Part shown: positions 57,286-60,838 of the stretch, in pieces
Numbering within the stretch: the first letter of the stretch is position 1
Layout of the letters: every line of letters begins with the position of its first letter
Made by a program: the position numbers and the translations under genes
Assembly: GCF_001677475.2 (NCBI RefSeq)
Contig: NZ_CP015229.1
Source of the DNA: Escherichia coli
GTDB taxonomy: Bacteria > Pseudomonadota > Gammaproteobacteria > Enterobacterales > Enterobacteriaceae
DNA length: 64,000 nt
Direction: 5' to 3' (one strand)
The notes under the pieces: model-generated
The model's database searches: none
What the model saw: the letters and a program-made list of their open reading frames with translations, nothing else
What the model was told of the DNA's origin: nothing

Positions 57286-59281
<1,996 letters not shown>

Positions 59282-59439
59282 TATTTTCTCTTTTCTGTTA
59301 ATTATTGAGAATAATTATTACTTCACTCAATAAGCTGCGGATATAACATTCTGAACCGCAGCTATTTGTGAATCCTTTCACAGTTTAAATTTCCCCACAT
59401 GCTTAGCCTTAATATCAGCACGCAATATTTATACTCTAA

Positions 59440-59560
59440 ATAATTCGAGTTGCAGGAAGGCGACAAGTGAGTGAGTCCCCAGGAGCTTACATAAGTAAGT
59501 GACTGGGGTGAGCGAACGCAGACGCAGCACATGCAACTTGAAGTATGACGAGTATATTTA
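59440..59560. repeat. ERIC (IRU) element
   Basis: Core GAGTGAGTCCCCAGGAGCTTACATAAGTAAGTGACTGGGGTGAGCG with flanking imperfect inverted arms (CGAGTTGCAGGAAGG... / ...CTTGAAGTATGACGAG). Confidence 0.8.
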
Positions 59561-59599
59561 GCGTTCGCCTTAATTACTCATAGCATTAAGGAAGATCAC

Positions 59600-60838
59600 A
59601 TGCCGCAACAAAATTATCTGGATGAACTCACTCCGGCTTTTACGCCTTTACTGGCGATTAAAGAAGCCTCTCGCTGCTTATTATGTCATGACGCTCCCTG
59701 TAGTCAGGCTTGCCCGGCACAGACCGATCCGGGGAAATTTATTCGCTCAATCTACTTTCGTAATTTTAAAGGCGCTGCCGAGACAATTCGTGAAAATAAT
59801 GCCCTCGGTGCCGTTTGTGCCAGAGTGTGCCCGACGGAGAAATTATGCCAAAGCGGTTGTACCCGTGCCGGTGTTGATACTCCCATTGATATCGGTCGCT
59901 TACAGCGTTTTGTTACTGATTTTGAACAACAAACTGGGATGGAAATTTATCAGCCCGGTACTAAAACGCTCGGCAAAGTCGCCATTATTGGCGCGGGTCC
60001 TGCCGGATTGCAGGCCAGTGTGACACTGACAAACCAGGGTTATGACGTCACGATCTATGAGAAAGAAGCACAACCCGGTGGCTGGTTGCGTAACGGCATT
60101 CCGCAATTCCGGTTACCGCAATCAGTACTGGATGCAGAAATCGCCCGTATTGAAAAAATGGGCGTGACCATTAAGTGCAATAACGAAATCGGTAAAACAC
60201 TCACCCTGGAGCAGCTGAAAGCGGAAAACCGCGCGGTACTGGTCACTGTGGGGTTATCGAGCGGTTCGGGGCTACCACTGTTTGAGCATAGCGACGTTGA
60301 GATTGCCGTCGACTTCTTGCAACGTGCACAACAGGCGCAAGGCGATATCAGCATTCCACAAAGCGCATTAATTATCGGCGGCGGTGATGTCGCGATGGAC
60401 GTAGCCAGCACGCTGAAAGTTCTCGGCTGTCAGGCAGTAACTTGCGTAGCGCGTGAAGAGTTAGATGAGTTTCCGGCAAGCGAAAAAGAGTTTGCCAGCG
60501 CCCGGGAGCTGGGCGTTTCGATCATTGATGGATTCACGCCAGTAGCCGTGGAAGGCAATAAAGTCACGTTTAAGCATGTACGGTTACCGGGCGAACTGAC
60601 GATGGCGGCAGATAAAATTATTCTCGCCGTCGGTCAGCATGCCAGACTGGATGCCTTTGCGGAGTTAGAGCCACAGCGTAACACCATCAATACACAAAAT
60701 TACCAGACCCGCGATCCGCAAGTCTTTGCTGCTGGCGATATTGTTGAGGGGGACAAAACCGTGGTCTATGCCGTGAAAACCGGGAAAGAAGCCGCCGAGG
60801 CGATTCATCACTATTTAGAGGGAGCTTGCTCATGTTAA
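59600..60838 (+). CDS. preT: NAD-dependent dihydropyrimidine dehydrogenase subunit PreT
   Basis: 412-aa; Fe-S cysteine clusters and FAD/NAD Rossmann motif (IIGAGPAG). Confidence 0.93.

Follow-up and report, generated by a model that had tools for sequence, protein, structure and literature searches.

The yeiS-preT spacer and its ERIC element

The genes in this part of the window (the whole 64-kb stretch of DNA analysed) run in the order cdd, sanA (58320-59039), yeiS, preT and preA, followed by mglC on the opposite strand. Based on the list of open reading frames and on homologous loci in RefSeq, the upstream gene yeiS occupies 59042-59281 (+), and preT, also named yeiT and the first gene of the preTA operon, occupies 59600-60838 (+). 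An initial annotation had placed an ERIC palindrome in the spacer between these two genes. The repeat found there is an ordinary full-length ERIC, far beyond what chance would give; the primer sites, a match to consensus at 125 of 127 positions and a long hairpin bore out its identity, and its location between yeiS and preT was confirmed. The borders first proposed, 59440-59560, had to be corrected, being 10 bp late at the start and 4 bp late at the end. The element extends over 59430-59556 (+), 127 bp including a TA at both ends, and its ERIC2 core reads on the sense strand of preT. What is new here is limited to the polymorphic site, the ERIC family itself having been known since 1990-91, when it was reportedly described under the names ERIC, IRU and RU-1 by Sharples and Lloyd in 1990 and by Hulton et al. 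in 1991.

The element was matched against what we take to be the sequences of the ERIC1R and ERIC2 primers. The ERIC2 primer matched at 22 of 22 positions (59493-59514), the sole match in the 64-kb window with 0 expected by chance, and the ERIC1R primer at 21 of 22 (59471-59492). Together with an inner inverted repeat, whose arms lie at 59477-59490 and 59495-59508, these two sites define the conserved ERIC core at 59471-59514 (+), which forms the tip of the hairpin. An inverted-repeat search identified the terminal inverted repeats at 59430-59454 (+) and 59532-59556 (+), each 25 nt long and 80% complementary to one another. A scan of metagenome contigs with the 22-nt core yielded 116 usable ERIC copies from 64 distinct sites, a sample into which the invariance of the core is built because the copies were picked by it. 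Forty full-length copies, the E. albertii copy described below and the window ERIC could be aligned without gaps over 127 columns. The window ERIC was identical at 125 of 127 positions to an E. coli-type consensus with termini ACTC/GAGT, the two differences being 39 C>T and 46 A>G, and at 116 of 127 to the overall consensus of copies. Sequences matching the ERIC were found at a median of 11 places per E. coli genome; the copy between pgk and fbaA is approximately 97-98% identical to the window ERIC, with two mismatches within the element. The RefSeq records matching the locus carry no annotation under the element. Minus-strand open reading frames of 56 and 35 amino acids overlap it and were taken as chance open reading frames within the repeat.

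Comparison with alleles lacking the element defined its target site. The spacer measures 318 bp in the window and 193 bp in both K-12 MG1655 and the ST131 strain 81009, and alignment of the filled allele with these gave a single clean 125-bp indel. Against an empty allele with the same flanks the difference was exactly 125 bp, the empty site containing one TA. Whereas the empty site reads ...AATATTTA followed directly by TTTAGCG... (in short, ATTTA next to TTTAGCG), the filled site reads ...AATATT-TA-(TACTC...GAGTA)-TA-TTTAGCG..., with the left copy of the duplicated TA at 59430-59431 and the right copy at 59555-59556. The 125-bp indel and the doubled TA thus indicate insertion at a TA with duplication of that TA, as is characteristic of miniature transposable elements. 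This agrees with the description of ERIC as a 127-bp MITE (a transposable element of the miniature inverted-repeat type) with terminal inverted repeats and a TA target duplication that is co-transcribed with its neighbours (PMC2229807; PMC3184786). The right end of the element is 43 bp before the preT ATG, and the insertion point lies 44-45 nt before it.

Occurrence in Escherichia coli and related species

Alleles were typed in 5,426 complete E. coli genomes using 50-nt junction probes, each arm of which was too short to seed megablast alone. The filled allele, recognised by its left junction, was present in 2,185 of the 5,426 genomes (about 40%), 232 of these carrying a long form in which the ERIC contains a 78-bp internal insertion. 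Empty alleles with the same flanks as the filled allele (type B) were found in 1,700 genomes, including O157:H7 and a derivative of Nissle 1917, and empty alleles with K-12-type flanks (type A, CAGTACATTATTATTTA joined to CTAAACGC) in 1,472; 69 genomes remained unclassified. A search with the full spacer was concordant (2,201 genomes with at least 80% query coverage). The initial annotation had suggested looking for presence or absence at this site across strains, and the site proved polymorphic, K-12 and about 60% of E. coli being without the ERIC.

Among 16 sampled loci, filled and type-B empty alleles each occurred on at least three different preT alleles, and no filled/empty pair had identical flanks; the closest pair showed 4 differences in the 900 nt upstream and 25 in the 1,100 nt downstream. 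The multiple preT backgrounds and the lack of an identical-flank pair in these 16 loci argue for an old polymorphism reshuffled by recombination, and a recent transposition was rejected on the latter ground.

Variation around the element was itself uneven, preT differing within E. coli by up to 62 of 1,100 nt and the upstream sanA-yeiS region by at most 16 of 900 nt. Over 10 kb the window was at best 98.4% identical to any of the 5,426 complete genomes. Among the spacers, that of K-12 resembles those of E. whittamii and E1V33 more closely than those of other E. coli, a pattern suggestive of old or introgressed haplotypes.

When one genome was taken for each species that has PreT, 19 enterobacterial loci were obtained. 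An ERIC was present at the same TA and in the same orientation in E. albertii and in two cryptic lineages, strain E69, which represents a divergent Escherichia lineage, and Escherichia sp. MOD1-EC7003. The E. albertii copy is 127 bp long, has termini ACCC/GGGT and is 78% identical to the window ERIC (79% over 123 positions by BLAST), with only 76% identity to either consensus. Strain E69 carries a short ERIC of approximately 70 bp from which the centre is deleted, and the copy in MOD1-EC7003 has the 78-bp insertion and a 32-bp deletion. An empty site with near K-12-type flanks was seen in E. whittamii, E1V33 and SCPM-O-B-8794, and the 232-bp yeiS-preT spacer of Citrobacter contained no ERIC. 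The rare right end GGGTAAA is common to the copies of E69 and E. albertii, which points to an old insertion shared by these two. The E. coli copy is 2 nt from its consensus and would therefore be younger, or have been homogenised by conversion with other copies. These observations would fit a single old insertion that was later lost in places as well as several insertions into this TA as a hot spot.

A nested insertion of 78 nt was observed inside ERIC copies, always after GAGCGA and folding into four small hairpins. An example is the copy at 449-653 of locus L024 (E. coli B20159), and further copies were found at L148, L151, L005, L139, L031, L039, L046, L047 and L071. A given genomic site may have it or lack it, as between the window and B20159 or between L102 and L139, and other ERIC copies contain a mirror-image insertion in the left arm; the 78-nt insertion behaves like a mobile or convertible sub-element. 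A separate observation concerns the flanks. The ERIC between pgk and fbaA (L025, 1154-1370) has 10 nt of its left flank, AGCACGCAAT, in common with the type-B flank of the yeiS-preT site (59416-59431), and a third site (L030) has CACGCAT at the same flank position. The common 10 nt could represent a gene-conversion tract running past the end of the element, a target preference, or chance. If the match is due to conversion, the 1,700 empty alleles with the same flanks would be precise excisions.

Start sites, leader and RNA fold of preTA

Upstream of the element, a CRP site was identified at 59364-59385 (+), with TGTGAatccttTCACA at 59367-59382 and its centre at 59374.5, as the sole perfect match in the window. 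The site is invariant in Escherichia and Citrobacter, and yeiT figures in the list of known CRP targets that genomic SELEX recovered (PMC3105977). A putative -10 hexamer, TAGCCT at 59404-59409 (+), would form with it a CRP class II preT promoter; the distance from the CRP site to TAGCCT and the block GCTTAGCCTTAA is fixed at 21 nt in Escherichia and Citrobacter. Cappable-seq of O157:H7 EDL933 mapped preT starts 58 and 184 nt before the ATG (PMC10469882, Table S5). O157:H7 has the type-B empty allele with a CRP-to-ATG distance of 108, as in other type-B alleles, and by alignment transfer and this distance the equivalent of the -58 start is 59417 (+), 13 nt upstream of the ERIC; the -184 start transfers to approximately 59291 in the window. 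With the -58 start, CRP lies at -42.5, as in class II promoters, and TAGCCT covers -13 to -8, a shift of about one base from the canonical -12 to -7. The alternative hexamer TAATAT (59410-59415) was rejected as the -10 element, as CRP would then lie at -47.5 and the hexamer is not kept in Citrobacter. A sigma-70 consensus scan returned no plus-strand promoter in the filled or the K-12 spacer, which is what a CRP-dependent promoter with a weak -10 would give.

For K-12 MG1655 the start taken from RegulonDB v10.5 lies 44 nt before the ATG (PMC10469882, Table S5), at the A of the target TA itself and 14 nt downstream of the EDL933-type start; the two flank haplotypes may use different preT starts. 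Kim 2012 reported a weak start of K-12, with 2 reads, that falls within yeiS, 228 nt upstream (PMC3415461), and preT start sites were not found in the further published start-site tables that were checked. No preT start was mapped downstream of the insertion point, the strains mapped being ERIC-less, and we therefore infer that the leader of filled strains measures 183 nt as compared with 58 nt. The proposal of the initial annotation that the element lies in the 5' leader of preT and may be transcribed into the preTA mRNA is thereby supported indirectly, through starts mapped in strains that lack the ERIC, namely EDL933, with the same flanks, and K-12. The element itself is intergenic, and its transcription in filled strains is deduced from start positions in ERIC-less strains with the same flanks; it would on this basis be copied into preTA mRNA. 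Insertion of the ERIC could also alter promoter use in filled strains.

Three further structures were noted in the spacer. Between the element and preT, a leader hairpin is predicted from CCUUAAU (59568-59574) and AUUAAGG (59585-59591), spanning 59568-59591 (+) and pairing part of the Shine-Dalgarno sequence AAGGAAG (59588-59594). Conservation of its sequence extends from Escherichia to Citrobacter, and a C>U change in Pseudocitrobacter keeps the pair as U-G; this hairpin may be a translational control element of preTA independent of the ERIC. Just past the yeiS stop codon is an A+T-rich palindrome, TAATTATTGAGAATAATTA (59299-59317), with the start at approximately 59291 just upstream. The Citrobacter version keeps the centre TTGAGAA and differs in its arms (ATTAGC...GCTAAT), a pattern as expected for a candidate protein-binding site. 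The third structure, also located after yeiS, is a hairpin of AGCTGCGG and CCGCAGCT with a 15-nt loop (59328-59368), immediately adjoining the CRP site. In Citrobacter another hairpin takes its place, and the structure may terminate the sanA-yeiS transcript weakly or stabilise its 3' end.

The plus-strand RNA of the ERIC was predicted to fold with -53.5 kcal/mol (z = -8.0; shuffle mean -27.6, 0 of 200 shuffles as good) and the minus-strand RNA with -39.7 kcal/mol (z = -5.2). The E. albertii copy gave -55.9 (+) and -37.7 (-) kcal/mol, giving the sense fold an advantage of 14-18 kcal/mol over the antisense fold in the copies from the two species; the difference arises because several pairs of the hairpin are G-U. 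In the family alignment 92.4% of pair cells were standard pairs, compared with 29-37% when the partners were slid, although palindromic symmetry at the DNA level would yield the same signal. Changes on both sides were found in the family at seven hairpin pairs, for example CG to UA at columns 6/122. Between the window and E. albertii copies there are 28 differences, 13 of them in paired columns, and 41 of 41 pairs are standard on the plus strand: three pairs changed on both sides, and seven changed on one side and are still paired, several solely through G-U wobble. Random placement of the same substitutions broke a mean of 8.9 pairs, and 0 of 20,000 trials broke none. On the opposite strand the non-pairs numbered seven in the E. 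albertii copy and four in the window copy. This conservation of pairing could reflect selection on the sense-strand RNA hairpin at preT, which would speak for a real function and against a near-neutral passenger; it also fits a family-wide constraint or descent from two source subfamilies. Among ERICs between co-directional genes, 14 had this orientation and four the other, a count made with crude open reading frame calling and including duplicate sites, and hence a hint only, compatible with a function. The frequency of about 40% and the persistence across species are likewise compatible with a function.

In the predicted fold of the leader, from 59416 into the coding region, the ERIC forms a self-contained structure extended by four flank pairs (ACGC/GCGU). 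The Shine-Dalgarno hairpin is predicted to be identical in filled, type-B empty and K-12 leaders, and a direct effect of the ERIC on translation initiation is therefore unlikely according to these folds. An effect on the decay of preTA mRNA is possible.

Possible effect on preTA and comparison with known repeats

We consider it likely that the ERIC forms part of the preTA leader and has a small effect on preTA. The element, a non-autonomous one, is inserted at a TA 44 bp upstream of the preT start codon, downstream of both the CRP-dependent start (59417) and the second start (approximately 59291), and would thus be copied into preTA mRNA. The 5' leader would be lengthened from 58 to 183 nt, and the transcribed element would fold back as a hairpin of 127 nt. 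Neither the promoter nor the initial 13 bases of the transcript nor the Shine-Dalgarno hairpin would be altered, and any effect would probably be exerted through mRNA decay, with the hairpin as a barrier or a nuclease target, and not through translation initiation. The insertion would be an old, recombining presence/absence polymorphism and not a recent jump. In this account the identity, borders and TA duplication of the element, its polymorphism and its position relative to the published starts are observations, and transcription through the element, its fold as RNA and the size of its effect are predicted.

A sizeable effect, with the ERIC acting as a cis-regulatory variant whose hairpin changes the half-life of preTA mRNA by 5' protection or by providing a site for RNase E or RNase III, so that strains differ in PreTA, seems possible to us but rather improbable. 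It would accord with the full conservation of sense-strand pairing between E. coli and E. albertii despite 22% divergence, with the greater stability of the sense fold, by 14-18 kcal/mol, with the pairing kept across the family through compensatory changes at seven pairs, and with the predicted start of the hairpin 13 nt into the transcript (4 nt when the ACGC/GCGU pairs are included). Orientation-dependent, RNase E-linked effects have also been described for Yersinia ERICs, as summarised in PMC2229807 and PMC3184786, but the mechanism described there concerns elements beside the stop codons of upstream genes and not 5' leaders. The conserved pairs may, moreover, reflect the needs of transposition or two source subfamilies and not selection at this locus, and about 60% of E. 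coli do without the ERIC, both states persisting on many backgrounds. That the locus is a natural cis-regulatory polymorphism, with a hairpin selected on the preT sense strand and altering preTA mRNA stability, is in our view unlikely.

Other readings assign the element a different place in the transcript. As a terminator or attenuator the hairpin would insulate preT from read-through of sanA-yeiS or of the upstream start and lower preTA; it is long and stable and is followed by the partly U-rich UAUUUAGCGUU, and transcripts from the EDL933 -184 start would have to cross it. However, a scan of the plus strand over 59000-59700 gave no terminator-like site, and an intrinsic (Rho-independent) terminator was rejected since the stem has an A-U-rich base (UAUACUC/GAGUAUA) with U at only four of the next eight bases, unlike intrinsic terminators. 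With the main CRP-dependent start only 13 nt upstream, strong termination would shut the operon down in 40% of strains, and we regard this role as very improbable. Little credence can likewise be given to a filled-strain promoter at or downstream of the right end, such as TATATT (59553-59558), which would leave the ERIC outside the preT transcript as mere DNA moving the CRP site 125 bp further away. The right junction does create a 5/6 match to the -10 consensus, and the RegulonDB start of K-12 at the target TA means that some haplotypes start very near the insertion point, but there is no matching -35 at 16-18 bp, the promoter scan gave no plus-strand promoter, and the CRP site, TAGCCT and the initial 13 bases of the transcript are all preserved without change from EDL933, for which the -58 start was mapped. 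An identity as a small-RNA gene belonging to Rfam family V_AS5 (RF02818, Vibrio antisense RNA AS5) is scarcely credible. The V_AS5 model was aligned end to end by cmscan (model positions 1-129, E = 1.6e-8), yet with 46.7 bits against a gathering score of 96, and the match follows the ERIC sequence, which is also present in vibrios; no promoter or terminator was found bracketing the element. The sub-threshold V_AS5 match (59429-59552) was the sole hit of the Rfam scan, in which no ERIC family exists, and V_AS5 appears to have been built on ERIC-like repeats of vibrios.

On its own the element is one more ERIC copy, and its wider relevance comes only through preTA downstream. The cancer drug 5-fluorouracil is inactivated by PreTA, the dihydropyrimidine dehydrogenase of bacteria, and in mice the level at which PreTA is expressed alters the drug's efficacy and toxicity (bioRxiv 10.1101/820084; PMC11185696). 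K-12 (MG1655/BW25113), the strain of both 5-fluorouracil studies, is without the ERIC, as is the probiotic Nissle 1917. If the ERIC were indeed a cis-regulatory variant, the approximately 40% of strains carrying it would differ from K-12, Nissle 1917, O157 and ST131 in their rates of 5-fluorouracil inactivation and uracil degradation, and, if it changes expression, metagenomic copy counts of preTA would not fully predict activity. The filled, empty, long and short alleles that occur naturally at this locus also make a clean series in which to examine what an ERIC does in a 5' leader.

The window copy resembles the classic ERIC in length, core and primer sites, inverted repeats, TA duplication, intergenic site and hairpin, and differs from it in nothing essential; what is specific is its location in the probable preTA leader, at a site that is empty in K-12. 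A full-text literature search for ERIC together with yeiT found nothing. The REP/BIME repeats of E. coli are also intergenic, transcribed, palindromic repeats able to stabilise upstream mRNA. REPs are approximately 35 bp long, G+C rich and mobilised by RAYT transposases without TA duplication. They have no sequence in common with the window ERIC. The likeness to V_AS5 (RF02818) consists in a covariance model that aligns over its full length to the ERIC, at half the gathering threshold. The Correia/NEMIS elements of Neisseria are MITEs with a TA duplication, are often found in the 5' regions of genes and form, once transcribed, hairpins that affect mRNA processing (PMC2229807). Their sequence is unrelated, and they have IHF sites, outward promoters and cutting by RNase III; unlike Correia elements, the window ERIC showed no outward promoter in the promoter scan. 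The ERICs of Yersinia belong to the same family, are co-transcribed with neighbouring genes and form an RNA hairpin, with an orientation-dependent, RNase E-linked effect on mRNA (De Gregorio 2005, as reported in PMC2229807 and PMC3184786). According to these secondary accounts, the Yersinia elements lie between cistrons or beside an upstream stop codon, where ribosomes unmask an RNase E site. The window ERIC is unlike these cases in that it would stand in a 5' leader, 13 nt past the start, on a main transcript without upstream translation.
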